From Malacoraja senta (taxonomy: Eukaryota): a stretch of 64,000 bases of DNA. Where the stretch lies: the NCBI GenBank assembly GCA_038087875.1, contig CM075993.1:10542001-10606000 (forward strand). Reading direction: 5' to 3'. This document shows, in pieces, positions 10,501 to 54,800 of this stretch; position 1 is the first letter of the stretch, and every line of letters begins with the position of its first letter. The translations under genes and the position numbers were made by a program. The notes under the pieces are model-generated. The model did not search any database, was not told the origin of the DNA, and saw only the letters and a program-made list of their open reading frames with translations.

Positions 10501-11485
10501 ACACGTTTGGACTTTCTGTGTCCCGGGACCTGCGAAGGAGGAGAATACGAGCCTGGTGATAGAAAACTTGTTGATGCTAATGGAAACTGTAAAGATGATC
10601 CATTGAAGGCAGTGGCTGGTGGAGTGGGAGATAAGGACCAGGGGACACTATCTTTTGTTCAGGAGATCAAGGGAAGCACAGTGGTGCAACTGGAAGAGCC
10701 TCTGCCTCATGGCGCCAGAGACCCGGGTTTGATCCTGACGTCGGATGCTGTCTTTGTGGAGTTTGCACCTTCTCTGTGTGACCGTATGGGTTTCCTATGG
10801 ATGTTCCAATTTCCTCCCACATCCCAAAGACATCCATGTAGGTTAATTGGCCTTTGTACATTGCCCCCTAGTGTGCAGGGAGTGGAATAACATTGAACTA
10901 GTGTGAATGGCTGATCGATGGTTAGCGTGGACTTGTGCCATGATGTATATTGGGGGAAAAAAGAAAGAGATGAGAGCAGAGGGGCAGGAAATGAAGGAGA
11001 GATAATCAAGGTCTGTGTCACCTACAGTAGACTGCATTCCACTGTTCAGGAAGAAAGAACACATTTCAAAGGCACCTGTGTAGAAAATTCTATCAGCACA
11101 TTTTGGTCAAGTTTTGTCACAAACATCTCTGAATAAACACCATGTGGAGTGAAGGAGCAAAATGATTGAGGTTGAAGTTATGTATTTTTGCCCTTGACAT
11201 TCAATAAAATTGTCCTTGAAAACGTGACGATTCTCCCTTAAGAATGCAAGGGTATTCGAAAATATTCAAAGAACATAAACAACATTTTTAAGCAATATTA
11301 ACCCCTTGAACACAGTCTTTTCATTCCATGTAATGTTATAGCAGACTGAGCTTGGCTTTCTTTATATTTTTCCAAAATATTAAGAGCCGCGTTTGAATAA
11401 CTTGAAATCAGAACTCCGCTTGTTGCCTGCGTCGTGCCATATGTTCAGTCTGATTTGAGTATTGCTGCTCCCTTTTATGTTTCAG

Positions 11486-11638: not shown

Positions 11639-14160
11639 GTAAGTGGGCCAACAAAATTAACCCAACGGATCAGTTCAGTCATATTTGTTTTTTCTATTAC
11701 ACAGAATCAATAAGGCTGAATAATTAGTACACACTCACACTGGTGTAAACAATTCACAATAGGTGACCCTGTTTCCTGAATGACCTGTTATTACAACTGG
11801 GGATGTCCAGGCCTTTCCATGCGCTTCATGGATATAAAGCGTCACCTGGGATCGCTGCTCTTCCAGTTTTGGCCACCGATACTGGGAAGGCGAGTGAGTA
11901 AGAGGGAGGTGGCGGAGAGCAACTCCCAGCCAAGTTGCCGACACCAGCGAGGCCTTCTTCACCAGCTGCTGCACCGTATAGTTGACGCGGCTCACGGTGT
12001 AGCCCCTGCCGACAGCGCCTCCTTCAGGCTGCCGCCAGCGACACGTTACCGCTTCCCTGTTTTATATCATTAAATAATAATAATAATTCTTCCTGCACCT
12101 CCTCATGTTCTTGGGCAAACATCATTTGAACAGGTTACTTACAACTTGGCCAGTGTTTTTTAAAGCTTACAGACGTTCTCACAGCTTGGGGAGGCTGATG
12201 GGTGAACAGTTCTGGATCCATCTGTCATGGCAGTTCTCCATGGGTAAAGCAACTAAGGCACAAGAAGGTCACAGATGTTTGATGTTGGCCCTTTAAACGG
12301 CAGTTTCAGAAGAAACAGAGTTAGTGAAAGCTTGTTACTCTGTTAGTAACCTAACCGTGACCTCCTTGTGCCTCAGCTGCTTAACCCATGGTCACATTCA
12401 GCTTCTTAGCCTCAGGACCATTACAAGTTGCTGCTGCTCATCTCCACTGCATTTTGTCAGTCAATGCTGCATGAAGGATGTTTCTAAACTTCACGTTGAA
12501 GGTGAGAAAGCTTCATCCACTGAGACTCGAGGCTACAGAATCTGGAATCGTAAGCAAATAACAAAGTGCTGGAGGAACTCAGCGGGTCAGCCAGCATCTG
12601 TGGGAATGGATAGACGAAGTTTTGGGTCGAGACCCTTCTTCGGATTCCATGTTGCCTTGAACCCACAAGAGTGTTCGGAGGCACAGGCGCCTGTCACCTT
12701 GGCAACGGACATCCCCCGGTAACTTCCTGCCAGGAGTGCCTGTCTCTATTTCTGTGGGTCCTACAAGCCTGTTCTTCAGCAATCTATCTGTCCCTCCAAC
12801 ATTACTCCTCCCCCTCGCATCACTGCAGCATCCATTCATTCAGTAGCATTACTCCCCTGTGAATGGAAGAATTTGCATCCCATCAATAAAGCACGCTGCA
12901 CCTACATCAGTATCAACGCGGTACTTTGCAGGCTAGCTGGACACCATTCTGTGAATGTTGCAATTGGCACAACAGCTGGAGCTGCTGCCTCGTATCTCTA
13001 GTGAGCCGGGTTTGATCCTGACCTTGGGTACTGCCTGTACTCCCCGTCACACCATGGGTTTCCCTCAGGTGATCCAACTTCCTCCCACATCCCAAACATG
13101 TGCTGGTTAGTAGGTGAGTGGCTCCTGTAAATTGCCGTGGTAAGAGGATAAAAGTGGAGTTAATGGGTATAGAACGCAGAACATAGCCAGTACAGCACAG
13201 GCCCTTCGGCCCACAAAGTTTGCCAAGTTAAACTGATCTCATTTGCCTGTACATGATCCATATCCCTCTATTCCCTGCACTTCCACATCCCTATACAAAA
13301 TCCTTTTAAACACTTCTATCGTATCTGCCTCCAACACCACCCCTGGCAGTGCGTTCCAGGCACCCACTGCTCTATGCAGTGCCCCACACATCCCCATTAA
13401 ACTTTCCCCCTCTCAACTTATAGCTATGCCCTCTAGAGTTGGGCATTTGCACCCTTTGAAAAATATTCTGACTGTCCCCATTATCAATGTCTCACATAAT
13501 CATCGGCGACACGGTGGCGCACTGCTCTGGATTAGATTCCATTTGACATTTTACTGCTCTACTGACCAGACCATCTCCATCTTCCTACTGTTGAAGCTTT
13601 TCCTCCTCCCTGTCATTTTAACAACTCACTTTGACTACAGAAGAAGGGTCTCGACCCGAAACGTCACCCATTCCTTCTCTCCAGAGATGCTGCCTGTTAC
13701 TCCAGCATTTTGTGTCTGCCTTTGACTTCGTCACTGCTGGTCTTGACTTGGCCCTCTCTTTATCTGCAGTTCCATATTGCAGATTATTCTGATCCAGCGA
13801 GTCTGATTATAAATATTAGAAAATGTTCCTGATCGATAGGATGTTAGGATAACAAGATACACGTGACAATGTAATGTGGTGCAGTGAAAAGCTTGTGCAT
13901 GCTATCCAAATAGTTCAGATAATGGTATACTTAAATACAATAAAGCCAAACTCAAGTGCTATAGGTAGAGAAAAGGGAAAAATACAGAATATAGTTCTCA
14001 GCATTGTAGCGCATCGGTTCCATAGACAAAGCCTAATGTCCACAATGGGGTAGAGGTGAATCGGACAGTACCCTAGTTTATGGAAGCCTGATAAGAGAGG
14101 GATAGAACTTGTTCCTGAGTGTGGCTGTGGGTGCTTTCAAGCTTCTGTATGTGTATTCAG

Positions 14161-16450: not shown

Positions 16451-17421
16451 CACTGCATCTTTTCCAGAAAATGTCAGCCAGCCTCTCTCAACTTCTCATA
16501 AATTAACCCGCGCAGGCTAATGGAACACTTTTGTGCCGGTGTCCATATACCAGATTCTACCAAAGTATCAATGTTACTTTTCTCATTCTAGCTGGTATCT
16601 GATAAACTTTACCCATGTGCATGAGGGAGGGCGTACTCTAGTTTAGAATCCTCTGCCCAGGGGATAAGTCTGTGTTTGTTCATTTGTTCCGGTGAAGGCG
16701 CTGTGCACACGGCAGCCAGACAACAGTCATTTGTCTTTTTCTTTTAATTTCAAGTTTTTGTGTACCTTGTGTGTTGTGACTGTCGGCAGATGAATCTCCC
16801 TCCGGAGATGAATGAAATTTATCGTATTATCGGTAAACTGGCGTTATTGTATTATTGATCAAAGTCGAACGCACTCCAGAAATGTTCAATTGACCGTCAC
16901 AATAAATGTTGTCTCTTTAAGAGAAAGAAACAAGGACTGGAACAGCTTTACGTTCTGATGTAGCAATTTTCAGTGACAATCAACATATCTTTGTCCCTAG
17001 AATTAATAGAAAGATACAGCATGGCTACAGGTCCTTCAGCATACCGAGTCCACGCCAACCATCCAATGTTATCCCACTTTCACATCCACTCCCTGCACAC
17101 TAGGGACAATTCACACAGGCCAATTAACCTACAAACCCGCACATCATTGCGATGTAAGAGGAAACAGAAGCACCCAGACGAAACACACAGGGAGAACGTG
17201 CAGGCACCACACAGACAGCTCCCAAGGTCAGGATCGAACCCGGGTCTCTGGCGCTGTGCAGTGGGAAACTCATTTCTTACAGTGGAAATGAACCCCATGA
17301 GCTCCACCGTGCCACTCCGATGAACTAACAGTATTGTGGTTTGATCGAGTAGTTTATTTTGATGATGTTTGTTTTACTCGGTTTCTGAACCCTCACCATC
17401 CTCTGTCTCTTCCCTACACAG

Positions 17422-17607
17422 CCTTATGACAGTTTGCCTACCTCACAAACCTGCTTCTTCCAGCTGCGGCTGCCGCCGTACTCCAGCCAGTCCGTCATGG
17501 CTGAACGACTGCGCTACGCTATCAACAACTGCAGGTCCATCGACATGGACAACTACATGTTGTCCCGCAATGTGGACAACACAGAAGGCTCCGACACAGA
17601 TTACTGA
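17422..17607 (+). CDS. HERC1: HERC1 final coding exon with HECT catalytic Cys
   Basis: acag|CCT TAT GAC; PYDSLPTSQTCFFQLRLPPYSSQSVMAERLRYAINNCRSIDMDNYMLSRNVDNTEGSDTDY* (TGA 17605-17607). Confidence 0.97.
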   Translation, partial: PYDSLPTSQTCFFQLRLPPYSSQSVMAERLRYAINNCRSIDMDNYMLSRNVDNTEGSDTDY

Positions 17608-20532: not shown

Positions 20533-21900
20533 CATTGTCCTCCAGAATGTTTGGGACAAAGACCCAGCATTTATTTATTTGCCTCTGTACTCCACAATTT
20601 GAGATTTGTAATAGAAAAAAAATCACATGTGGTTAAAAGTTCACATTGTCAGATTTTATTAAAGGGTATTTTAATACATTTTGGTTTCACCATGTAGAAA
20701 TTACAGCAGTGTTTATACATAGTCCTCCATTTCAAGGTACCACAATGTTTGGGACACAGCAATGTCATGTTTAGTATTTTGTTTCATATCCTTTGCATGC
20801 AATGACTGCTTGAAGTCTGCGATTCATGGACATCACCAGTTGCTGGGTGTCTTCTCTGGTGATGCTCTGCCAGGCCTGTATTGCAGCCATCTTTAGCTTA
20901 TGCTTGTTTTGGGGGCTAGTCCCCTTCAGTTTTCTCTTCAGCATATAAAAGGCATGCTCAATTGGGTTCAGATTAGGTGATTGACTTGGCCACTCAAGAA
21001 TTGACCCTTTTTTAGCTTTGAAAAACTCCTTTGTTGCTTTAGCAGTATGTTTGGGATCATTGTCTTGCTGTAGAATGAACCGCCGGCCAATGAGTTTTGA
21101 GGCATTTGTTTGAACGAGCAGGATGTGTCTATACACTTCAGAATTCATTATGCTACTACCGTCAGCAGTTGTATCAATAATGAAGATAAGTGAGCCAGTA
21201 CCTTCAGCAGCCATACATGCCCTGGCCATAACACCCCCACCACCGTGTTTCACAGATGAGGCGGCATTTTTGGATCTTGGGCAGTTCCTTCTCTCCTCCA
21301 TACTTTGTTCTTGCCATCACTCTGATATAAGTTAATCTTCGTCTCATCTGTCCACAAGACCTTTTCCAGAATTGTGGTTGTTTTTTTATGTACTTCTTGG
21401 CAAACTAACCTGGCCATCCTATTTTTGCAGCTAACCAGTGGTTTACATCTTGCAGTGTAGCCTCTGTATTTGTGTTCATGAAGTCTTCTGCGGACAATGG
21501 TCATTGACAAATCCACACCTGACTCCTGAAGAGTGTTTCTGATCTGTCGGACAGGTGTTTGGGGATTTTTCTATATTATTGAGAGAATTCTTCTGTCATC
21601 AGCTGTGGAGGTCTTCCTTGGCCTGCCAGTCCCTTTGCGATTAGTAAGCTCACCAGTGCTACTACAGTCAGCAGTTGTATACTTACATTGTCCTCCATAA
21701 TGTTTGGGACAAAGACCCATCATTTATTTATTTGCCTCTGTACTCCACAATTTGAGATTTGTAATAGAAATTGTGTTCTTAATGATGTTCCAAACAGTTG
21801 ATTTTGGTAAGCCTAAGGTTTGGCTGATGTCTCTAACAGTTTTATTTTTGTTTCCCAGTCTCATAATGGCTTCTTTGACTTTCATTAGCACAACTTTGGA
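20533..21900 (-). mobile_element. Tc1 (DD34E) transposon, IR/DR type, decayed and truncated at its 5' side
   Basis: Frameshifted transposase: HTH (KTVRDISQTLGLPKSTVW), VLWTDETKI, QQDNDPKH-34-SPNLNPIE; TIR starts after TA at 20531-20532 and has direct repeats AATGTTTGGGACA near 20546 and 20744. Confidence 0.9.
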
Positions 21901-21904
21901 AAAT

Positions 21905-23005
21905 TTAAAAAGCGGGCCTTGCAATGACTGCATCTCCCAGCGGGCCTCCAGTAGGATGACGCATGTTCCCTCTCCAGGACGTAAGCCTGGAAAAGGGGCA
22001 GGCAGCCTACCCCGGTGTGGCCGTCGACTACCTGTTGCTTGGACCCGCGAATGGCCCTCTTGGCCAGGTCCAGGAGCAGACCGACAGGGAGACTCCCCTT
22101 TCCCTCCAGACCCTCTCCTCTCTGTGCCCAATATCAGGTGCCTGGGGCAAAAATGTAGCCAATGCTTGAGGAGCAGTACCTTCAGATAGTCGAACAGGGG
22201 CTGCAACCTCTCACACTGCACGTACAAATGAAACACGGTCTCTTCCTCGCCGCAGAAGTGACAGGCGGCTGGCGATTCCGTGAACCGGCTCAAGTACCTG
22301 TTACAGGCCACAGCCATGTGCAACACTCTCCACCCCAGGTCCCCGATGTAAAAGGGGAAGACTCCCTTATAGAGAGACCTCCATTGGGGACCGCTCCTGC
22401 GGTCAGGTGGTAGCAAGGGCGTGTCAGGACGGAGGGCGAGGAAGTGTAGAGTGTGCAGGAGCAGCCTGCACAGTACGTGCCTCTCAGCGTCACAGAACGG
22501 CACGCTGGGCATCTCGGAAAGGCGGTTAATGCTGCCTGGGGCCGGCTCTCGGGAAGGGACCCGGGCCGTGGGTCCTATGAGCAATTCCGAAGGAGCTGGG
22601 ATAAGCTCGGCCGGAATTGCTCCACGCACACGCCTCTCCTCGATACCCACCTTGACAGGGTGAGGACCGGCCACCCTCGTAGCCACAACACCCTCCCCCC
22701 CTGAGGAGCAGCGCCCTGGCTGAAGGTGACCAGATTCCTGGCTTTAAGTAGATCACGATAAAAGCCCTGCATGTCGACTGATGCCCGCTGCCGGGAGTTC
22801 TGTGCCCTCCTGGTGACAGTGCCCTGGCAGAAAAAATACATCGCCAGCGCATGCCATCTAAGAGGACACTCGGAATACATATACCTCCGCAGGGTCCTGA
22901 GACAGAGAACTGCCACCTGGGTACGGACGCAAACCAGCGCCTGACTGCCCGCCTTCAACGGGAGACTCAGAACCCCAGTAGAGACCCAATGATTCCTCTG
23001 CATGG
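21905..23005 (-). mobile_element. Tx1/L1-clade non-LTR retrotransposon ORF2 C-terminal fragment
   Basis: HWVSTGVLSLPLKAGSQALV (post-RT) and zf-RVT-like WRVLH...CHFCGEEETVFHLYVQC; GC-rich; frameshifted. Confidence 0.8.
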
Positions 23006-23112
23006 CCCACTGGGAGTTGTAGTGTGCCGCAAGGCCCGCTGGGAGCTGTAGTGTGCCGCAAGGCCCGCTGGGAGCTGTAGTCATTGCAAGGCCCGCAGGG
23101 AATTGTAGTCCT
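23003..23112. repeat. Four ~29-bp tandem units each with ACTACA(A/G)(C/T)TCCC
   Basis: GGGAGTTGTAGT, GGGAGCTGTAGT x2 and GGGAATTGTAGT at ~23012, 23041, 23070 and 23098. Confidence 0.85.
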
Positions 23113-23207: not shown

Positions 23208-23700
23208 TTTCAAATTGTTTTTTAACTTTGTGTGAGTAGATATTTTGCAATAGCAAAATAAATTAATAAATTTAGGGCCTCCTGGAGAAAGAAATTAAGA
23301 AGCGACCACTTGAGGAAAAGTATTTCCAGCTTCAACAGCAATTTTGTTCATCTATTTATAGCATGCGTTTCTGAAGCACGCAGCACCAAGTGGGCCAACA
23401 ATCTCTGAGGATTTGCCACTTTTCATTTCACTGCACATCTCATATGTGTATGTGACGAATAAACTTGACTTGACTTGACTTGACAAAATCGGCATGTGTT
23501 TGGTCCAATTGCAAAAACAAATAGTGCACAACAATTTGGAACGCTTGCACATTCGGTCCGTCAAACACATCCGCGCCAGAGACGGAGCGCTTCACCGTTT
23601 GCTCGTCTCCTGGCGGCGTGAAGCCCAGATCCAACAGCATCTTCCACAGGATATTCTGGGCTGTAATCCTCCAGCACGATCCAGGAGCCGGCGTTGCATT
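23208..23700 (-). pseudogene. HAUS6: HAUS6 (augmin subunit 6)-like pseudogene, N-terminal domain segment
   Basis: ILWKMLLDLGFTP...ADVFDGPNVQAFQIVVHYLFLQLDQ [LINE-tail insertion ~23419-23483] ...RDCWP...FRNACYK*MNKIAVEAGNTFPQVVAS*FLSPGGPKFINLF resembles HAUS6 N-terminus (LWMYLQALGF...FPQVVGSLFLSPGGPKF); in-frame stops at 23352-23354 and 23295-23297, frameshifts; ends at GAAA|gtaagt donor. Confidence 0.85.
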
Positions 23701-23704
23701 GTAA

Positions 23705-24006
23705 TGGGCCTGTCCCACTTACAAGATTTTTTTCGGCGACTGCCGGCACCCGTCATAGTTGCAGCAGGTCGCCGAGAATTTTCAACATGTTGAAAATCCA
23801 GCGGTGACTCTTTGGGTGACCACTCACCATCATACAGGAGTCACCCCGCGACTTGCCTGTATGGTCGTGAGTAGTCGCCCAAAGAGTCGTACCTTTTTCT
23901 GGTCGCCGCTGCATTTTCAACATGTTGAAAATTTTCGGCAACCTGCTGCGACTATGACGGGTGCCGGCAGTTGCTGAAAAAAAATCGTGTAAGTGGGACA
24001 GGCCCA
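23705..24006. mobile_element. PIF/Harbinger-like MITE (near-palindromic)
   Basis: TIR TGGGCCTGTCCCACTTAC...GTAAGTGGGACAGGCCCA, long internal inverted repeat, TAA/TAA TSD. Confidence 0.85.
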
Positions 24007-24009
24007 TAA

Positions 24010-24715
24010 ATGGTCTGTCCCACTTGGGCGACCTAATCTGCGAGTTTAGAAGAGTGTCTTTGACCTTTAAGCTCGCAGCATGGCCGACACGAGGTCCTAT
24101 GAGGTCGCTGGAACTCTCCTTCATGCTCGAGGGAAGTTCCCGAATACTCGCGGCCTCAGCTAGGTCGCGGAAAATTCCGCGAGTAAAATTTGGTCATCAT
24201 GTGTCTTTTTAACTCGTAGTGCAGTGGAGTGGGGTCGCTATTTGGTTACAGGCAGTCGAGGGCAGCCGTAGGCAATCTCCTTCGCTGATCGGGCATTTTG
24301 ATTGGCTCATTGGAGTTTTCAGGACCAGGGAAAACCAACTGGTAGGTTAAATACCCGCTAAACTTTATTATACTTCTTAAAAGTGTCTCCACTCCTTCTC
24401 TCCCCTTCTCTCTCCTTCTTCCCCCTTCTCTTCCGCTTCTCCCCCTCCTCCCCTCGCGCTCTCTAAAGGACTTACCGTTACTGTGCAGCCGTTTTAGCTT
24501 CATCTTCATTGCGCAGACGGCGCTCCCCCGCTTTCCCTGGCCCTGGCCTTCGCGATGACTCTGTGTGTGTGTGTGTGTGTCGGTCGATGCAGCTCGCGGT
24601 TTCAACGAGGGCGGTCGATCCAGCTCGAGGCTTTCCAGGCGAGTGTCCTCGAGCTAGAAGGTCGAAGACACTCTTTTTAACTGGCCGATTAGGTCGCCCA
24701 AGTGGGACAGGCCCT
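24010..24715. mobile_element. PIF/Harbinger-like MITE adjacent to the previous one
   Basis: TIR ..CTGTCCCACTTGGGCGACCTAATC / GATTAGGTCGCCCAAGTGGGACAGGCCCT; flanked by TAA and TTA. Confidence 0.8.
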
Positions 24716-26034
24716 TTACTCTGTGGATGCCAGCTGCTGACTAATCATTCACTCCTTTCCCCAAGGAGGAGCATTTTATTTGACAGCGATAAAAGCCGTT
24801 CAGTTGCTATGGTTGAATTCTGAAAGAAGATCCAAAAGAAGGGATATAACATTTCTAGGACTCTGGAGAGAACTCGCTCACTCCCTATCTGCTGCGGACA
24901 AAATATATATTTGAAATAAACTGCAGAACTTTTAAATGTAAAAAATAATCTGTGTTTATGTTCCTACAAGACTGGGAAGAAGTTTCCTACAAACCTGCAT
25001 GTCTTTGGGATGTGGGAGGGAACTGAAGCACGCAGATGAAACCCACACGGTCACAGGGTCAATGTACAAACTTCACACAGAGAGCACCCGAGATCAGGAT
25101 CGAACCCGGGTCTCAGGCGCTGTGAAGCAGCAGCTCTACCCGCTGCACCACTGTGCCGACCCTGCAGAGATGAGCTTTACTGCCAGGAGTCAGGTTGGCA
25201 ATTTAAACATTACAATAGTGCTGTGTGAAACAGTGTTTCAGACCGTTACAGAGTTAACCCTGACTGCTGTGTTCCTGAGGGCAAAGGAAAACCCAATAGT
25301 TCGAGGGAAGGGTAAGCACCTTTATAGAAGCAAGATGGTTTCTTCCATCCCACCCAGCATCATAGAGCACCCACCACCAATCCCAAACACAGTGAAGGGG
25401 TAGGGAAAAGTGGACTGAGATCGGACTCTGCCGGGTCTTAGCATCACTAGATCAAACCTGTCATTGAGGTTGCGTTTTGGGTGGGGATTGCTTCAGGACC
25501 CTGACTGATATCCACACTACATGGGGGGCAAATATGCCTGGGATGTTTCCCCATCTGAGACTGATTCCCCACCCCACACTGCCCAGCCGACCAGTTCCTG
25601 TAGCTATCATAAGGTTATAAGTGATGGGAGCAGAATTTGCCCAATCAAGTCTACTCCGCCATTCAATCATGGCTGATCTATCTCTCCCTCCCAACCCCAT
25701 AAACCCTTGACACCCTTGTATCGTGGGCAGAATTTCTGGGCCAGGGAATGAACTAGAGGTCATCAGTGTGAGGCTTTCACCAATGGTCCAATGTACTTTA
25801 TTGTCACGTGTACCAATGTGCAGTGACAGTTTGTTTTGCATGCAGTTCAGTAAAACTCTTACGATACAAAAGCACAATCATATTGAAGTACAGAGTATAA
25901 GATGACCGATTACACTGAGGCAGTAAAAAATAAATCAGGTGGGACATTTGGAAGAAACTTTCTTCAGAGAACATGCAGCTCATCTCCACAGATGAGAGAA
26001 ATTGACAAGAGAGGTTCAGGAGACTGCAGGTGGA

Positions 26035-26470: not shown

Positions 26471-26732
26471 AGGTTCAGGAGACTGCAGGTGGAGGTTGAA
26501 GGAGATTTGGAACATGGATTTAGGTGAAGATAGACACAAAATGCTAGAGTAACTCAGCAGGGACAGGCTGGAGAGAGGGAATATGTGACGTTTCAGGTCG
26601 AGACTCTTCAGATTTAGGTGAACAAGCGAAGTTGGGAAGATTCAAGTGAAGCATAAGAGCCGCACGTTGTGAACAGTTTGTTCTGTGCTGGGGTCTCCTG
26701 GAAAAATAGGAAGTTGGGGTCCGGGCACCATT

Positions 26733-27384
26733 GCCCCCTGGTGGTGGTGAAGGCAGCAGCGCCCCCTGGTGGTGGTAAAAGGGGGCATCGCCCCCTGGTG
26801 GTGGTGAAAGGGGGCATCGCCCCCTGGTGGTGGTGAAAGGGAGCAGCGCCCCCTGGTGGTGGTGAAGGGAGCAGCGCCCCCTGGTCGTGGTAAAAGGGGG
26901 CATCGCCCCCCTGGTGGTGGTGTAAGGGGGCATCGCCCCCTGGTGGTGGTGAAAGGGAGCAGCGCCCCCTGGTGGTGGTGAAAGGGGGCATCGCCCTCTG
27001 GTGGTGGTGAAAGGGGGCATCGCCCCCTGGTGGTGGTGAAGGGAGCAGCGCCCCCTGGTCGTGGTAAAAGGGGGCATCGCCCCCCTGGTGGTGGTGTAAG
27101 GGGGCATCGCCCCCTGGTGGTGGTGAAAGGGAGCAGCGCCCCCTGGTGGTGGTGAAAGGGAGCAGTGCCCCCTGGTGGTGGTGAAGGGGGCAAGCGCCCC
27201 CTAGTGGTGGTGAAAGGGGGCATCGCCCTCTGGTGGTGGTGAAAGGGAGCAGCGCCCCCTGGTGGTGGTGAAAGGGAGAAGCGCCCCCTGGTGGTGGTGA
27301 AAGGGGGAAGCGCCCCCTGGTGGTGGTGAAAGGGAGCATCGCCCCCTGGCGGTGGTGAAAGGGAGCAGCGCCCCTTTCACCACT
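26733..27384. repeat. 29-bp GC-rich minisatellite, 22 units plus a terminal inverted half-unit
   Basis: Unit GCCCCCTGGTGGTGGTGAAAGGG(G/A)GCA(T/G)C; variants recur at 174-bp (6-unit) spacing; minus strand reads CCACCAGGGGGCGC/A. Confidence 0.95.
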
Positions 27385-28174
27385 ACAGCTGTCAGACCAC
27401 TTGAATCAGCTCTGAGCCACATGCATGCGGATGGTGTCAGGGACAGAGTGCCATTGGGTTTTCACGGAGCAATTCTGAGATTCTTCTGTACAAAATCATG
27501 AGGGGAATAGATCAGGTAGATGCACAGTGTCTTGCCCAGAGTAGGTGAATCGATGACAGGAGGACATAAGTTTAAGGTGAAGGGGAAAAGATTTAATATG
27601 AATCCGAGGGGTAACGTCTTCATATAAAGGGTGGTGGGTGTATGGAACGAGCTGCCAGAGGAGGTAGTTGAGGCAGGAAATATCCCCACGTTTAAGAAAC
27701 AGTTAGACAGGTACATGGACAGGACAGGTTTGGAGGGATATGGACCAAACGCAGGCAGCTGGGACTAGTGTAACGGACATGTTGGCCAGTGTGGGCATGT
27801 TGGGCCTGTTTCCACGCTGTATGACTATCAGAGTGGTGAGTGTATGGAACAAGCTGCCAGACGGGGAGGTTGAAGTTATACAGGATTATAACAACGTTTA
27901 AAAGACGTGGGCAAGTTCATGGATAGGAAATGTAGAGGGATATGAACCAAAAATAGGCAGATGGGACTTCTTGATCGGCGTGGGCAAGTTGGGCCAAATG
28001 GCCAGTTTCCTTGCTGTATGACTGACCAGAGAGACATAAAATATAACCACTGCAACACTTGTCTTCCCCCGTCCCTCACTGAGACACCCACTGTCCTTGT
28101 GAAGATTTGCTGCAGTCAGAGCCTCATAACTCACACATCTCCTTCCCGTCCCTGTAGTCCATGGAGTTGCAGTG

Positions 28175-28517
28175 TTACCAGGGCAGTCGCTTCTTCCTCC
28201 CGTTCCCGAGGCTGTCGCTTGTGTCGGGCTGGTCAGGAATCATTGCAGCGCTGTGATCTGCACGGAGGCACAGTGAAGGGCAGGTCCGACCGATCCGGTC
28301 CAGCCCCTCCTGTGTGATATTCCGGCAGAAGTCCACGTGCAACGTCCTCACGTTGCCCCCGTAGATGGCAACGGCCTCCAGACTTTTGTCAGTCAGACGT
28401 GCACAGTTCTCCAGTTTCAACGTGTTTAGTTTGCTGCATCGCCCCAGGATTTGTGAGATGTAGTCATCTGTAAGGTGTCCACACCCAGCAAGGGTTAATG
28501 ACAGCAAGTTTGGACAC
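28175..28517 (-). CDS. FBXL22: FBXL22 coding exon 2 (leucine-rich repeats) to stop
   Basis: ttttttcag|[28 protein letters not shown]...[14 protein letters not shown]...VDFCRNIT; joins exon 1 in frame to give 225 aa. Confidence 0.93.
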
Positions 28518-31500
28518 CTGAAAAAAGATCACAATGATTATAGAGATTGCAATTGACTTAAAGTCTGGGCTTTAGTCTGTATTACTGCATGTAATGCAGA
28601 CTAAAGCATACACACTTGCCCAGACAACAGATCAAGGAGCACGGCCAGTGACCAGACTGAGACCACTTCTCTCTGGGACCATCTCTCCCTGGTATAATGG
28701 ACAATGGTTACACCCACCAAAACGAACAGATTATTGGTTTATCTGGGGAACTACTTACTACACAGTAGTTACCTGCTTTGTTTCAGACATAATTCAAAAA
28801 CACCCACTGACAGTAACGCACTGGAACTGAAATAGAGAACACATAGAAAATAGATGCAGGAGTAGGCCATTCAATATGATCATGGCTGATCCAGAATCAG
28901 TACCCCCATATCCCTTGATTCAGTCGTGAAGTTGGGGGGAAAAGCTGACTTTCTTTGGGGTGGCACCAGTGCCAATGGTGGCCCACGCACCTCCAGCTCT
29001 TCCCTCTCCACTGTAGAGCTGGTGGCTCTGTGAGAAGTTGTCAGAGACAGTCGCTGTGTTACTGCAGTGAATCCAGGAACAGTGACTGGTGCACCAGTGG
29101 TAGTGAGGAGATTCCATCTGTTTAATATGTTGTGCAAACTATCCTTTATAAAAGTATAACGTTGTCCACCTAACCTACCCGGTCATTGCTCAAACAAATT
29201 GCATTAGTTCTGTATTATTAGCAGAGCAAACATTTCGTAGAAAAGTTCAAACAAAATTGACACATGGCCAGAGGGCAAGCTTGAGAGTGAAGTTGAACTG
29301 GTCTGAGACGATTCATACGATCGATCCCCTCTCGTGTGCCCGTATATAGATCAGCCATGATTGAATGGAGGAGTAGACTTGATGGGCCCAATGGCCTATT
29401 TCTGCTCCTCTCACTTCTTGGACATGTGGAGTTGAGTGCACCTGATCGCACGTGTTTAGTGCTGGCAGCCAAAAGTAATTGCCTCCCTCTGCCCCCTGTG
29501 ACTCAAGAATGGTCAGTGAAGTGGGCTTTGGGGATTTTCCCAAAGGAAAAGTGGATTTAAGGAGGAATTCCAGAACTCAGGATACAGAGGGACTAGAAAT
29601 GGCAAATCCTGAAGGTTGGGGCCAGAATGTGATGATCACAAATTGCTGAATTTGGTTGTCGTGACCCAAGGCCTGAATGCAGTACAGGATGTGGTACCCC
29701 GGGCTTCATTAGACCAGTGGACAAGGTCAGCGTGCAAGTTGAGTGCAGAATTAAACTGTGCCAGCCTAAGCGGAGAGTCACATCGGAGCACTGAGTTCTG
29801 GTGTTGTGTCGGCCTGTAACTGCTCTGCTTCTCCAAATGTGGGTACCAGGTTGGCAACCATGAACGTAGCAACAATTGGAAGAAGTGGTCACTTCCCTGG
29901 AAGGATCGGTTGGGTCCCTGGATAACAAGAAGGGAGAAGTAACGGCAGAACCTGCAGCACCAGCAACTGACTGCATTAATCAATCCCCTTCAGCATCCCC
30001 GTCTCCTGCTAAAGATGGGTCTCGATCCAAAACGTCACCTATTCCTTTTCTCCAGAGATGTTGGCTGACCCGCTGAGTTACTCCAGCATTTTGTGTCTCT
30101 CTTCGGTGTAAACCAGCATCTGCAGTTCCTTCCTACACATTCTCCAAACACAGGCGGCCCCCGGGTTCTGCAAGGAATTTGTTCTGGGAATTGTGAGCTG
30201 GTTTCTCCATGTCCATTTTCTTCTGTAGCCCATATGGTATCCTGTAACTCATCTAACTTCATTTCATTCAGTAATCACCCTAACACTACCTGTAATTAAA
30301 CTAATGGAATGTACACGGTATATAGACATTAATATCATGAAACATCATTAGCTTGAAGATACGTAAAAACATCTGCGTAAACCCGTTTATTCAAAGTTAT
30401 TCATAAGCCCAGGAGCCCCTGAACTTGTTACTCTTTTCCCCTGGTCTTGTGTAAATCTTGCTCTCAAAAGGAGTTTGAAGTTGGAGTTTACTTTAGAGAT
30501 ATAGCACGGAAACAGGCCTTTCGGCCCACTGGGTCCATACTGACACTAGTTTGATGTTATCCCACTACCTAAACACTAGGGGTAATTTACAGAGAGTCAA
30601 TTAACCTACAAACCTGCACATCTTTGGGAAGTGGGAAGTGGGAAGAATCCGGAGCACCCGGAGGAAACCCACGCGGTCACAGGGAGGAAGTGCAAACTCC
30701 ACACAGACAGCACCCGAGGTCAGGATTGAACCTGGGTCTCTGGCGCTCCAAGGCAGCAACTCTACCTGCTGTGCCACCCTTGAAGGTGAGGAAGGAAGGG
30801 AATACCACTCGGGCAAGGGTGATGTCTGTGGTAGTGCAGGACACGGAAGGGGCATGGATGAGGCCGCTGGGGACATGATCTCAAGGGGGGTGTATAGTGT
30901 CTGACTCAAATGGCTTCACGGACCCCTTTGTTGATGAGGCTGGAGAAGGCAACAGAAGGATGATTGGAAGGAGGGATCAGCAGTGTGCGGTGGAGAGGCC
31001 TGGAGTTATCAGGGCATTGCAGGATGGCCCTGCATCTACTGAGCAGTGGTGGCACTTTACACCTAGCTACACATGACAATAAAGTATCGAACATCCAGCT
31101 GTCATCCCATTCTCATGTAACAGCTTCAGTCTCATCATAAAATCCTGCTCCATGTTCCCCTCTAGCTTACAACTACAGAGCACACAATACTTTGATGAAT
31201 GACAAAAATAATGCGTAGAGGGTGCATGAGAGAGCCCGGAATGAAGGCGTGGAGCCAGGCAAATTCTGTAGAGGCTTTAATGAGCACAGCAAACTACTCT
31301 CCGCTTCAGTGAGAGACTGAAGACTGGTCTCGTGCCAAAAATCCCTGCTCTTATCTCGTGGCTGGGAGCCGCCCCCGGACCGGTCCATCAAGTGCAGAGG
31401 GGGATGAACCAGGGAGTGGCCTACTCGCCAGGAACCACCACAAATGTTTAGTTCCATGAAAGTGGCCGCATGGGTCGGTAGGATGGTGAAGAAGCGTTTG

Positions 31501-34500: not shown

Positions 34501-34726
34501 CAGGTACATGGATAGGGCAGGATGGGAGGGATATGGACCAAACGCAGGCAGGTGGGACTAGTGTAGCTGGGACATGTTGACCAATGTGGCCAGGTTGGGC
34601 CGAAGGGCCTGTTTCCACATTGTATTCCTCTACTCCGCCATTCAATCTATCTTTCCCTCTCAACTCCATTCTCCTGCTCTCTCCCCATAACCCTGGCAGT
34701 GAGGAGATGTTCTGCCTTCTACTGAC

Positions 34727-35061
34727 CTGTAGCTGACTTCAGCCAGGAAGCCATTGACCAGAGTGTGGTGACGGCTGCAGATGTCCCTCTGGAAGCTGCT
34801 CTTGGCCCAGTCTTCAATGTTACACACCTTGACTCGGCTGGAGTGCCAGCAGATAGCCAACGATCGCAGCGCGGGGCTGAGCACAAAGTTGTCCTTCTTT
34901 AGCTCTGACGGTGAGGAGAAGCACAGCAGGGACCACAGAGCAGGGTCATGGAACACTCCCCGCAGCGTTCTGCAGGTCGCTGACATACTCTTCCTGTTCT
35001 CCTTATCCAAAAAGGAGAAAATATGCAGCAGGCACTCTCGGTTTAAATCTGTCAGCAGCAT
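34727..35061 (-). CDS. FBXL22: FBXL22 coding exon 1 (F-box)
   Basis: ATG at 35061; [26 protein letters not shown]...[14 protein letters not shown]...; donor TAC AG|gtcagt; located between USP3 and HERC1 as in human. Confidence 0.93.
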
Positions 35062-35156
35062 TGGAAGCTAGTCTTTGCACCCTGGCTCCACGGAGCAAAT
35101 TACAAAGCAACTTCTGGGAAATCTGCCTCATCCAGGCTGCTCGAACAGCAACGTGG

Positions 35157-39561: not shown

Positions 39562-40053
39562 CGATTTTCCAGCATCTGCAGTACCTTCTTAAACATCAGT
39601 GGTTAGCAAATCTGGGAATGGAAATAAAATGAGATCCTCTGATAAACCAGGGAGATATTTGGCATTGGAAAGTGGCTGTAATATCACACAGGTTTGTGGG
39701 GAAACAAAAGCCATTCCAGATTTCTCTTCCAAATCAGCTTTTCAGACAGGGACACGACTCAAAAGAGCCAAGGAGACCGGTTATTCATGTTGACACTAAG
39801 AACTGTAGATGCTGGAATCTTGAACAAATCACAAAATGCTGCAGGAACTCAGTGGGTGGGTCAGGCAGTGTCTGAGACGGCAATTGACAAACGATGTTTC
39901 GGCTCAGAAGGTAAACACAAAAAGCTGGAGTAACTCAGCGGGACAGGCAGCATCTCTGGAGAGAAGGAATGGGTGACGTTTCAGGTCGAGACTCTTCAGA
40001 CTGATGTCAGGGGAGTAGGCGAGACGGAGATAGAATGTAGTCGGAGACAGTAA

Positions 40054-40468
40054 AGGGCCTGTCCCACGGGCATGCGGCAAGCGCGACCTAACCGCAAGCG
40101 GGGGCCGTGCGGAGGTCGCGGGTCCGGTCCCACTTCGATCGCCGGAGCCGTGTGGAGTTGTGCGGAGCTGGTCCCGACATCGCGCGGGGCTCTAAAAAAC
40201 CGACACTGTTCAAAAATTCCGTGCGGCAACGGCCTGCCGCCCCGCAGCCGCATCGAAGCCGCGCGCATCGCCTCAACGGCCGTACGCACCGTCTTGATGT
40301 CACTCGACCTCTGCGCGGCCCCCACTTCCGATTTGGTCGCGCTTGCCGCATGCAGCCGCATGCTCGTGGGACAGGCCCTGTACGGGGATCACTCGACCTC
40401 CGCGCGGCCCCCGCTTGCGGTTAGGTCGCACTTGCCGCATGGAGTCGCATGCCCGTGGGACAGGCCCT
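40054..40468. mobile_element. PIF/Harbinger-like MITE, CpG-rich, with duplicated right end
   Basis: AGGGCCTGTCCCACGGGCATGCG...CGCATGCCCGTGGGACAGGCCCT; flanked by TAA/TTA; extra internal TIR ending at ~40379. Confidence 0.8.
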
Positions 40469-40554
40469 TTAGACTGGTGGGAGAACTGGGAAGGGGGAGA
40501 TTTTGGCTCAGAATTCTTCTCCAGGTTATTTATGTTGCATGGGGAAGAGTTACA

Positions 40555-42569
40555 GAAAGAAATAATGTACATTTATTCAAGAGGTCTCTGTGCCCATTGG
40601 ATGTCTGAAATCCAACGGAGGAACCAATTTTGATTGTAGTTACATTTTTAAAAAAAAAGAAAAAGGGGCAGGTGTACACAGATGGACTTACATTTCTGGG
40701 GGATATAGGGCAATGAAACATTTTATGAGATGGTTTTTAAAAAATGGATTCATCTTTGTAAAGAATTTCCAAATGGCAAATGAATTGTCGATTAAAATTA
40801 TTTCCCAGAATCACAGCTAATTATTAAACAAATATTATACCTTAATCAATTTTAAACATACAAGAGCTGCAATGCTGAGTTTATGAACAGGTTTATAATT
40901 GAAGACAAAATGCAAAGTTTTGCATCATTAACATTGCACTTTACTATCAGTGAAACAATACATGAACATTTACTAATATACATACCATTATAAGCAGCCA
41001 TAGTAGTACATATACAATCAGGTTTGTTGTGGGGTTGAAACTGAATAAATCTCATGTTATTACTATGTCAGTTCATATTTTGCAACCAAAAACATTAACA
41101 TTTAAATAAGTTTGTACAGTTTTAAAAGTCAGATTCAAGTTTAGTGCGTGTTTTCACATTTAAAAGACCGGTCGGTGTTGAAACCCACCCAACTGTTTCT
41201 GTTGGCTGCTGCTTCCACTGCTGCCGCCCTGTTACACAACATCCACATGCAAATACACCACTTCATCTCATTACGCAATTTAAACATTCAGTTCCAAAAA
41301 CACTACTTAGGCCACCATAACAGGATTAATGATAACGTGCCTTTGACAAATAAGGCCTTCATTCTGGCATGAAAAGATACCCATTTTGCGTGTGTGAAGC
41401 TGTCGCCCACTGTTTCAAGTTGAGAACACAAGCGTGTTACGGATGCGCCATGCTGCCAGTCTCCTCAAGTAGCCTGGCATCTTTTTTCACTTCTCTTCAT
41501 CGCGTAAAAACTGCAGATTCCCAGCCTGTTTCTAATTAACCCTTAGCAACCCATCGCCACCGAGTGATACGGACAGCTGAACATAAACTCTACTCTGCCC
41601 AGCAAAGTATTGGGATAAACCAGAGTCCAAATTGGTTTTCAGTTCCGTTTATTTTTTGCTCCATCATTTTTTTTTTTTTTAAACAAAACTTGTTTGTTTT
41701 TCTGAAAGATTCAATAGTGTCTAGCGATGCATCAGGAAAATGACGCCTTTAAAAAAATCAAAGTTGAATACCCAAACTAAAATGTAAAAACATAAATTGA
41801 ATTGTGCAACATAAGCAAGTGTGGAGCAGTTTGCCTTTGCTCTGGGTTCCCAGTGTTTACAATGGTTGCATGAAAAATGGCAACAAAAATTAGACAGTGA
41901 TCGATTTTCAATTTAAAAAAAATTCTTGGGCAGATACAAGTGCACAAGGCACTGCAAAGTCAAGGTGCATTTACACTTTACGTATCTGATAATACTGAAG
42001 CCCATGTCTACACAGTACTTGTTTGAAGGAGCAAAGAAAATAATAGCAGCCTGCTAAAAACGAAACCCTCAAGTAACCGACCCACACAGTTGTTTATTAG
42101 TCTTGTGTAGTTACTTAAATCATTCTCCCAGAGATTTTGACTGCTGAAACTCGAGCTGAATGCTGATTAAATCTGGAAGTCACGAATCATGATGTTTTGA
42201 GAGAGGTTTGCTTGAACCCAGATGTAAATGCACCTTGAAGGCAACCAATGCTATCCTACAGTTTACACTAAGGAGGCCATTTTAAAATATCAAATTTCAA
42301 TGTCAGAGCTACCAAGTTCTTGATTAACAGCAACCACTACAGATTTCAAAATATTCTGTGATAGGCTAAAACTGGACCAGGTGTCCACGATTGCTGCGTC
42401 AGCACTAGTAATGGTGCAATGAACACAATTCTCATCAGCGATTTAAAAGTGCAAGATGAAAAGAAGTCTTGAACTATCAAGTACTTGTGGAAATGTAGAA
42501 CTGTTTGTGCGCATTTCAATTCAGTATTTGCAGGGAAACGCTGGCATATAAAAAAAATGTTAGGTTGCA
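40555..42569 (-). other. USP3: Probable long (~2 kb) USP3 3' UTR
   Basis: About 2 kb with no recognisable TE in an otherwise TE-saturated region; AATAAA on minus strand at 40572-40577 (others near 41648 and 42093). Confidence 0.55.
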
Positions 42570-42738
42570 TTAAAGTTTGGTGCCCGGTCCCGATTTGGTC
42601 TGGCGTTCCACATAGAACAAGATGTAGGCCTTGGCCTTCACTACAGTTTCTTCTTCAGTCAATGTAACAGTACTGTCATTGAAGTGGAACCAGCGGCCTT
42701 CGTGGGTTGCATATGCAGTGTAATGACCAGAGCCAACT
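42570..42738 (-). CDS. USP3: USP3 final coding exon (catalytic His and Asp)
   Basis: cttag|A GTT GGC TCT GGT CAT TAC; VGSGHYTAYATHEGRWFHFNDSTV...KAYILFYVERQTKSGPGTKL*. Confidence 0.96.
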
Positions 42739-43124
42739 CTAAGAGGGAAAAAGAAAACATCATTATTGCTCCACTTACAATACATTGATGGCTAGTCCAA
42801 TTTACTCAGTAAAATTATAAAATTTAAGGCTTTTGTACAAAATAAATACAAGGCTTACAATGTACTACTTGAAATAAATGGTTGAGAAGAAACTGCAGAT
42901 GCTGGAAAATCGAAGGTAGACAAAATTGCTGGAGACTCAGCGGGTGCAGCAGCATCTATGGAGCGAAGGAATAGGCAACGTTTCGGGACGCTGAGTTTCT
43001 GCAGCAATTTTGTCTACCTTTGAAATAAATGGGTTGGCTATGAACTAATTATAATCAGAGTAAATGTACTTGAAATGTTCTTTCACTACAGCCCATGTAA
43101 CACTAAATAACGAGGCACAACAAA

Positions 43125-53339: not shown

Positions 53340-54800
53340 TTACTTTTAGCCAAGTATGCTTTGCAACATTCAAGGAATTTGATTTGCCAAACAGTTATAC
53401 CAATAAAAAGCAACAAGACACACAAAATACATTTTAACATAAACATCCACCACTGTGAATCATCCACATTCCTCACTGTGATGGAAGGCGAAAAATAAGT
53501 TCAATCTCTTCCCTTCTTTGTTCTCCTGCGGTCGGGGGCCTGGAGCCTTCCGTTGACGGGACGCTCTTGGCTCCTGTAGCCGGAGGTCGGGCCCTACACG
53601 TCAAAGCGATCAAGCTCCTGCATTGGGGGGATGTCAGCTCCCCGCGACCCACTTGAGCTTCCCGACATCGGTCTCTAGCCGAGATTGCGAGCTCCTCGAA
53701 ATCCGTTGGATCGTCGATCCCAGGCAAGGGATCGGCTCCGATGGCAAGTCCCCGTCCCCGCGGTGGGGCTCAGTTAGTCCCAAGCAAGACCGCCAGCTCC
53801 ATGATGTTAGGCTGCAGAGCTACCGGAGATACGATCCGGAAAACAATCGCATCTCTGGCAAGGTAAGAGATTGAAAAAAAGTTTCCCCTGACCCCCTCTC
53901 CCACATAAAACATACCAGAGAACATTAACACTAACTTTTAATAAAAGTCATTAAAATAACAAAAAGGACAAAAAGGCAGACAGACCGTTGGGGTGGCTGC
54001 CATCGCTGACGGCGCCACCCGGTGGTGGGGAAACAAGACAGGCAAAGGCAGCAGGGGTATAGAACAAAAGATAGAAACAAAAAGCTGGAGTAACTCAGCG
54101 GGACAGGCTGGAGAGAAGGACTGGCTGATGTTTCGGGTCGAGACCCTTCTTCAAAGGTCTTTTATTGTCACAGTACCAATTAAGGTACAGTGATATGCAA
54201 ATTACCATACAGCCATATGAAAAAAAGCAACAAGACACACAACTATATAAAAGTTAACTAACATCCACCACAGCGGATTCCCCACATTCCTCACTGTGAT
54301 AGAAGGCAAAAAAAGTTGAAACTTCTTCCTCTTTATTCTCCCACGGTCGGGGCAGTCGAACCATCTGTCGGGGTGGTCGAAGCTCCCGCGTTGGGGCGAT
54401 CGAAGTTCCAGCGGCTTGGCGTTCCCGAAGTCGGTCTCTGACCAGAGACCACGAGCTCCACGATGTTAAAGCCAGCAAGCACATGGTTGGAACTCCAAGG
54501 TTGATCGCGGGCTCCACGGTTAAAGTCCCATAGGCCCCACGGCGGAGCTCAAAAGTCGGTCTCCAGCAAAGGCCGCCAACTGCTCGATGTTAGGCTGCAG
54601 TGCGGACGGATATACGATACGGAAAAAAATCACATCTCCGTCGAGGTAAGTGATTAGGAAAAGTTTCCCCCTACCCCCCCCCCCACATAAAACAAGCTAA
54701 AGAACACTAAAAACATACAATTAACAGATACGATTAAAACACAAAGGAGGAAGGGACAGACTGTTGGCGAGGCAGCCATTGGTGGTGCTACCCGGTGGAG
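53340..54800 (-). mobile_element. Two related GC-rich interspersed repeats in tandem (~53340-54025 and ~54160-54800)
   Basis: Shared blocks AAAGCAACAAGACACAC, CACATTCCTCACTGTGAT, ATGTTAGGCTGCAG, GGTAAG.GATT and CCCGGTGG end. Confidence 0.65.

Follow-up and report, generated by a model that had tools for sequence, protein, structure and literature searches.

Genes and repeats at the locus

In the stretch of 64,000 nucleotides of skate DNA that was analysed here (hereinafter, the window), a 29-bp minisatellite lies between the 3' ends of two convergent genes (Table 1). The plus-strand gene, represented by four HECT exons that end at 17607, was named HERC1 by synteny, and the minus-strand gene was identified as FBXL22 from its Pfam F-box and LRR matches, its identity being highest to Amblyraja radiata (94%) and lower to other rays (86-89%) and sharks (78-82%). 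FBXL22 is a muscle-enriched gene, and the gene with a UCH domain that is located behind it is, by synteny, presumably USP3. The array is separated by 0.8 kb from the stop of FBXL22 and by 9.1 kb from that of HERC1, in agreement with the original prediction, which had placed it about 0.8 kb past FBXL22, between convergent genes. In the little-skate annotation, herc1 and fbxl22 have consecutive gene ids (PMC9605692).

The array and its unique flanks are embedded in dispersed repeats. A broken DDE transposase (20774-21570, minus strand; Pfam DDE_3 at 20774-21316), which we take to be Tc1/mariner-like, separates HERC1 from the array. Positions 23000-23109 are occupied by a second 29-bp tandem repeat with 3.8 copies, the minus strand of which carries what we presume to be a ZNF143/THAP11-type motif look-alike; together with an inverted copy of its unit at ~21912-21950, ~1 kb to the left, this repeat brackets a zf-RVT LINE fragment (21727-22743), and the two may represent inverted termini belonging to a small DNA transposon. 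The CpG-richest stretch of the window (39751-40750; o/e up to 1.1, GC 0.66) is found between FBXL22 and the end of USP3; it includes an 89-bp two-copy repeat (40300-40468) and is resembled by palindromic CpG-rich repeats at 23500-24700.

Table 1. Genes, array components and flanks, with positions in the window
Feature	Positions	Strand	Description
HERC1, last HECT exon and stop	17389-17607	+	Pfam HECT; stop 17605-17607; named by synteny
Left flank	26619-26732		114 bp; no other match in the window
Leftmost CTCF-type site	26729-26747	-	20.8 bits; completed by the unique left flank; putative ancestral single site
29-bp minisatellite	26733-27374		22 units of 28-30 bp; one minus-strand CTCF core motif per unit
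GCCCC, left copy of the 5-bp direct repeat	26733-26737	+	start of the array; from the sequence
Exact 140-bp duplication	26847-27160	+	26847-26986 = 27021-27160; offset 174 (six units)
Terminal hairpin	27352-27386		last unit plus inverted part-copy of the unit (27372-27386); 12-bp perfect stem, -16.8 kcal/mol, z -4.26
GCCCC, right copy of the 5-bp direct repeat	27370-27374	+	end of the array, 0.2 partial unit; from the sequence
Right flank	27375-27494		120 bp; no other match in the window
FBXL22, last coding exon (LRR)	28175-28528	-	limits of the open reading frame; stop 28175-28177
FBXL22, first coding exon (F-box)	34660-35067	-	Pfam; limits of the open reading frame
USP3 (presumed), last UCH exon	42573-42791	-	Pfam UCH; gene behind FBXL22

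Structure of the minisatellite

Tandem Repeats Finder reports a period of 29, 22.2 copies and 89% matches for 26733-27374. The 22 parsed units fall into 16 distinct variants, and the 21 complete units differ from one another by 9.3% on average, so that the array has the organization of a typical minisatellite, namely, head-to-tail units within the 10-100-bp range with interspersed variants, bounded by a short direct repeat (GCCCC, at 26733 and 27370). When the possibility of a dispersed satellite or a transposon-borne repeat was considered, the 13-mers of the array proved to be confined to it, with none elsewhere in the 64-kb window, the extent of the search. Identical units are found six units apart (4 of the 15 pairs at lag 6) and never as neighbours (0 of the 20 pairs at lag 1); together with the exact 140-bp duplication, this shows that the array grew by blocks. 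The exact six-unit duplication is evidence of turnover, not of polymorphism, and the array, which the original prediction called a VNTR, is a candidate VNTR.

A perfect 7-bp hairpin is usual in one of the two main unit types (nine junctions per type), and a stronger one closes the right end of the array. The 3' end of a Helitron consists of a hairpin followed, some 10-12 bp later, by a CTRR end; at the required distance beyond the terminal hairpin there is no CTRR, and this candidate was rejected. A G-quadruplex minisatellite was rejected as well, with no canonical match of four G3 runs on the plus strand and a maximum G4Hunter score of 1.24. The Chi octamer does not occur in its exact form and occurs 16 times in a one-mismatch form; no weight was given to this count. 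Directly 3' of the terminal hairpin, there is an 8-bp perfect palindrome (27385-27392) containing CAGCTG, presumably an E-box of the muscle-factor type; this hexamer occurs 22 times across the window, so the palindrome may be due to chance.

CTCF motifs in the array

Both strands of the whole window were scanned with a CTCF count matrix after JASPAR MA0139.1 (column sums 908-913, self-consistent). Under this matrix, 17 of the 22 minus-strand sites of the array score between 20.5 and 24.3 bits, against a maximum of 27.5 (p<1e-7), and do so despite the 9.3% difference between units; one site scores 18.3 bits, two score 14.4 owing to a C-to-G replacement in column 5, and the remaining two, at 7.4 bits, are broken by an extra G. 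Altogether, 20 of the 22 sites reach p<1e-5. The strong motifs, without exception, lie on the minus strand and are oriented towards HERC1, and the six plus-strand matches are weak (9.5-9.6 bits) and overlap strong minus-strand sites. The matrix scan, which the original prediction had named as a check, thus bears out its central observation, a 29-bp minisatellite with some 22 co-oriented CTCF motifs. Its statement that nearly every unit carries the core holds for the motif and does not hold for the two strings it had quoted, either of which is matched exactly in 10 of the 22 sites; the exact 14-mer CCACCAGGGGGCGC is present in seven. The 15-bp core read by fingers 3-7 of CTCF is printed in PMC12885311.

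A chance origin of such a motif is improbable: among 20,000 units that were shuffled and tandemised, none reached 24.3 bits, two reached 20 and 38 reached 15, and the expected frequency at the GC content of the window is ~1e-7 per unit. Outside the array, 15 CTCF matches are listed in the window, the best of them, at 54010-54028 (minus strand), scoring 19.1 bits. Other single CTCF-like sites on the minus strand are located at 12013-12031 (15.8 bits) and 10859-10877 (15.6 bits); the latter is, apparently, within a common short interspersed repeat and has 11 bases in common with the left end of the array.

CpG dinucleotides and methylation

The CpG of the core is preserved in 20 of the 22 sites, 18 times in register and twice shifted by the extra G, and the other two sites read CA. 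This CpG falls on position 12 of the core, at which CTCF binding is nearly indifferent to methylation (PMC8084297), and the methylation-sensitive position is position 2 (PMC8084297, PMC6600276). A CpG at position 2 is present in one site of the 22, unlike what is expected of a methylation-switchable array of the H19 type. Judging from the sequence, CTCF binding to the array should be largely methylation-insensitive and, because the retained CpG occupies position 12, dense methylation would be compatible with binding. The retention of the CpG had been read as a sign that the array is young or unmethylated; this reasoning fails, given that position 12 is nearly neutral and that CpG o/e is lower in the array (0.34) than on average in the window (0.45). 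Moreover, a single CpG change in 21 junctions cannot separate youth from lack of methylation, so that the CpG count neither dates the array nor reveals its methylation state.

Origin and age of the array

The reading that we prefer, and hold to be somewhat probable, is that a single pre-existing CTCF-type site gave rise, by ordinary amplification, to a GC-rich, locus-specific minisatellite, at a subset of whose units CTCF would be bound, so that the array would behave as a single saturated, left-pointing site the copy number of which is probably neutral. The motifs, the ends of the array, the duplication and the gene context are observed directly; for the origin, a plausible sequence of events can be proposed. 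The ancestor would have been one minus-strand site flanked on either side by a GCCCC direct repeat, the two repeats being 28-29 bp from each other; the interval would have been duplicated when these repeats slipped or underwent unequal exchange, and each duplication junction would have rebuilt a complete core motif, equal to the original or better; the hairpins within the units and the copying of several units at a time could then account for growth to 22 units. Flanking direct repeats of 5-10 bp are a signature of minisatellite birth (Haber and Louis 1998, as cited in PMC4232551). The leftmost motif is completed by the unique flank, so that even an allele with a single unit would contain a strong CTCF-type site, and this, with GCCCC at both ends, supports the earlier suggestion that a single site was amplified. 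Both 14.4-bit sites and both 7.4-bit sites are within the duplicated block, and hence damaged sites themselves have been copied.

On the claim that the array is young, the evidence points both ways. The exact six-unit duplication does indicate recent turnover, whereas the 9.3% difference between units, compared to the ~6% divergence of the flank from organism B (see below), speaks against a young array. The array could be an old one that has recently turned over, provided that it does not mutate more rapidly than the flanks and that its two unit types do not go back to the first duplication.

Probable CTCF binding and occupancy

CTCF motifs, with the customary bias in orientation, are found at the TAD boundaries of skates (PMC10115646), so the motif can be considered meaningful in these fishes. 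Given this use of the motif and the location of the orthologous little-skate region in the A compartment, CTCF probably binds the array. How many sites could be engaged at once is a different matter. Adjacent 19-bp motifs in the array are separated by 10 bp, and in the IL3 and HS4 probes, the gap between the upstream motif and the core is 8-9 bp (PMC12885311). Fingers 9-11 of one CTCF molecule would overlie the tail of the next core, so occupancy would probably be limited to some of the sites, and we infer that neighbouring sites are not all fully engaged simultaneously. Our literature search did not find published work on co-occupancy of adjacent CTCF sites. The upstream consensus for fingers 9-11 is matched at 6-7 of 10 positions, with a gap of 8-9 bp, in 7 of the 22 sites; this match, noticed post hoc, has P of 0.006-0.06 against random sequence or period and 0.24 when the spacers alone are shuffled, and it overlaps the preceding core. 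On the preferred reading, amplification of one site followed by partial occupancy, the array would most likely be equivalent to one left-pointing CTCF site of high occupancy and, within the TAD, could serve at most as a loop anchor that faces HERC1; its copy number probably would be beyond saturation and unselected.

Among the alternatives, the one that fares best, though unlikely in our assessment, is that the minisatellite is inert, that is, a decayed or incidental look-alike, covered by nucleosomes and lacking useful CTCF occupancy. Most genomic CTCF motifs have a low predicted impact, and the model predictions require ~15 bp of suitable flank (PMC11828424), whereas the flanks of the sites in the array are neighbouring cores; furthermore, CpG o/e is not raised in the array, and the motif shows no sign of selection. 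Against inertness stand the improbability of a chance match, the presence of 17 strong sites whose core is methylation-insensitive, and the location of the orthologous little-skate region in the A compartment (PMC10115646).

The selection test is based on seven events and thus has low power: the seven distinct motif substitutions have a mean effect of -2.99 bits, compared to null values between -3.2 and -3.7 under six mutation models (P 0.24-0.42), so that the substitutions in the array are not milder on the motif than random draws. In three of the seven, the new base is the second most frequent one in a degenerate column, and the two sites with the extra G were set aside, with the case for selection weakening further if these are counted.

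Proposed insulation between HERC1 and FBXL22

The original prediction went further, envisaging a copy-number-tunable insulator or loop anchor between FBXL22 and HERC1. Taken here as an insulator or TAD boundary that is maintained by selection and shields HERC1 from FBXL22 enhancers, this model is improbable in our view, the 17 strong sites, the co-orientation of all strong sites and the partial match to the finger 9-11 consensus in seven sites being in its favour, and the P of 0.24 for that match with spacer-only shuffles, as well as the overlap with the preceding core, weighing against it. From gene order, we assume that, in the little skate, the HERC1-FBXL22 junction lies between Dapk2 and Usp3. 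In the published Hi-C analysis of that species, no boundary is called between these two genes (PMC10115646), so that, if the assumption is correct, the junction lacks a called boundary in the orthologous interval, a result that pertains to another species, which may or may not carry the array, and to fin tissue, 25-kb bins and a score cut-off. Dapk2 (12.04 Mb), the Usp3 bait (12.59 Mb) and Rab8b (12.78 Mb) are within one called TAD, Leri_36C (11.4125-12.8375 Mb, on a 15.3-Mb chromosome; PMC10115646, SI Tables 8-10), and the junction is probably spanned by two low-count HiChIP rows, one linking the Usp3 bait with 12.39 Mb and the other linking the Rab8b bait with 12.28 Mb (PMC10115646). Hi-C insulation at the locus had been proposed as a check; as far as the little skate is concerned, the published calls argue against a boundary between FBXL22 and HERC1.

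With respect to copy number, the published experiments and models do show that insulation depends on the dose of CTCF sites (PMC7087399) and grows with the number of tandem sites; however, beyond two sites the added effect becomes smaller, and arrays of 6 or 15 non-boundary sites bind CTCF strongly without insulating (bioRxiv 10.1101/2020.07.07.192526), which lends no support to tuning by copy number. These dose tests employed 139-bp elements or, in the model predictions, 180-bp spacing (PMC11828424), compared to 29 bp in the array. The proposed role of the array as an adjustable boundary so far has no positive support.

A broader conjecture, a long shot in our judgement, would combine several of these elements: CTCF sites in cartilaginous fishes would have been turned repeatedly into short-period minisatellites; with a period of 28-29 bp, the tail of one core would coincide with the finger 9-11 position of the next site, so that junctions rebuild two-part, high-affinity sites bound alternately; and length alleles would represent natural dose variants of a cohesin barrier that works in one direction and alters the HERC1-FBXL22-USP3 contacts.

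Comparison with known CTCF-site arrays

Tandem arrays of CTCF sites are not without parallel. The macrosatellites DXZ4/Dxz4 and D4Z4 are tandem and CTCF-bound, and Dxz4 shapes chromosomal contacts in an orientation-dependent manner; the units of these arrays are kilobases long, thanks to which the sites are uncrowded, in contrast to the 29-bp unit of the skate array. Closer in scale is DXPas34 of the mouse Tsix promoter, a 30-34-bp tandem repeat, described as having a CTCF site in each monomer, that is lineage-restricted and varies in the number of sites among rodents, down to zero in one vole (PMC3149622). However, DXPas34 is X-linked, rich in CpG and associated with a promoter, and it has been the subject of experiments (PMC3149622), whereas the skate array is located between two 3' ends and has a CpG o/e of 0.34 and near-consensus cores; no homology is implied. 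The short sequence repeats of alphaherpesviruses similarly consist of short tandem units with CTCF motifs, differ in copy number between strains and have been proposed to be insulators the strength of which may vary with length; these, of course, are viral, and some of them are documented to be bound and their variation in length has been demonstrated (PMC3192842), whereas in the skate array binding is probable and length variation putative. The clusters of CTCF sites in Pcdh, in Igh and at TAD boundaries also are co-oriented, with directional anchoring and dose-dependent insulation (PMC7087399; bioRxiv 10.1101/2020.07.07.192526; PMC11828424), but are made up of separate, spaced sites with their own flanks, and their dose effect saturates and depends on the flanks. 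A human subtelomeric 29-bp repeat was considered and rejected as a relative: it has the period alone in common with the skate array, carries NRF1 sites, and is ~300 bp away from a CTCF site (PMC6600276).

Among the literature matches listed, with most subscription papers outside the coverage, we found no description of a CTCF minisatellite in skates or sharks. The skate array is real and belongs, as a clear-cut case, to a class of repeats that has precedents in mouse and herpesviruses; it is probably bound by CTCF and probably not under selection. It illustrates a route of CTCF site multiplication that does not involve transposons. Should the array prove to be bound and variable in length, it would provide a natural allelic series in which the number and packing of co-oriented CTCF sites, at 29-bp spacing, could be related to the strength of the barrier.

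Sequencing runs and related organisms

That the copy number was inflated or scrambled by the assembly, the true allele being much shorter, is very improbable: the exact 140-bp duplication could be a mis-join, but the presence of 16 variants among 22 units, without identical neighbours, and the representation of the array in sequencing runs are hard to reconcile with this possibility. Runs X1 and X2 of organism A contain 0.48 and 0.45, respectively, of the 67 words sampled from the array and its flanks; as the share of non-array words among the distinct words is 0.31, the run data include some words from the array (binomial P 0.002 and 0.01, even sampling assumed), although the two runs belong to one study and may derive from the source sample. 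Among the 11 listed runs, eight contain 0.04-0.07 of the words and one contains 0.00, which is not taken as evidence of the array in relatives, and none is an RNA run with words from the array or the flanks. A search of metagenome and viral contigs with a 26-base exact piece of the array gave no matches, an uninformative result for a fish genome.

Equally improbable is the reading under which any role of the array is played in the FBXL22 3' UTR or in the termination zone and not as chromatin DNA. When the FBXL22 strand is followed from the stop, the first AATAAA comes beyond the array, at 25797, and the single ATTAAA, at 27592, is within a dispersed repeat, so that the array may be in the 3' UTR, but the FBXL22-sense strand is C-rich and the plus strand has no canonical G3 quadruplex (mean G4Hunter score 0.23); run X3 does not connect the FBXL22 exon to the right flank.

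For the right flank, 4 of the 11 listed runs were compared; the dispersed repeats at 27495-28031 swamped the loose-end analysis. The lack of cover of the right flank in X3 and X4 (27375-27454) and in X1 (27375-27403) proves nothing. Run X8, from organism B, contains the orthologous right flank from 27385 on, ~94% alike (12 differing letters in ~200), and differs from the window in 48 of the 727 letters of the FBXL22 exon region. By the arithmetic of read depth, two further X8 records apparently extend past 27375, which suggests that the inverted end piece probably predates the split. Run X1 is identical to the window over 27404-27513 and 27981-28560. Its record 1, a contig at half the depth seen at the exon (21.2 vs 41.9), matches 27404-27513 exactly, and its first 28 letters do not fit 27376-27403, which hints at a second allele that differs right at the end of the array.
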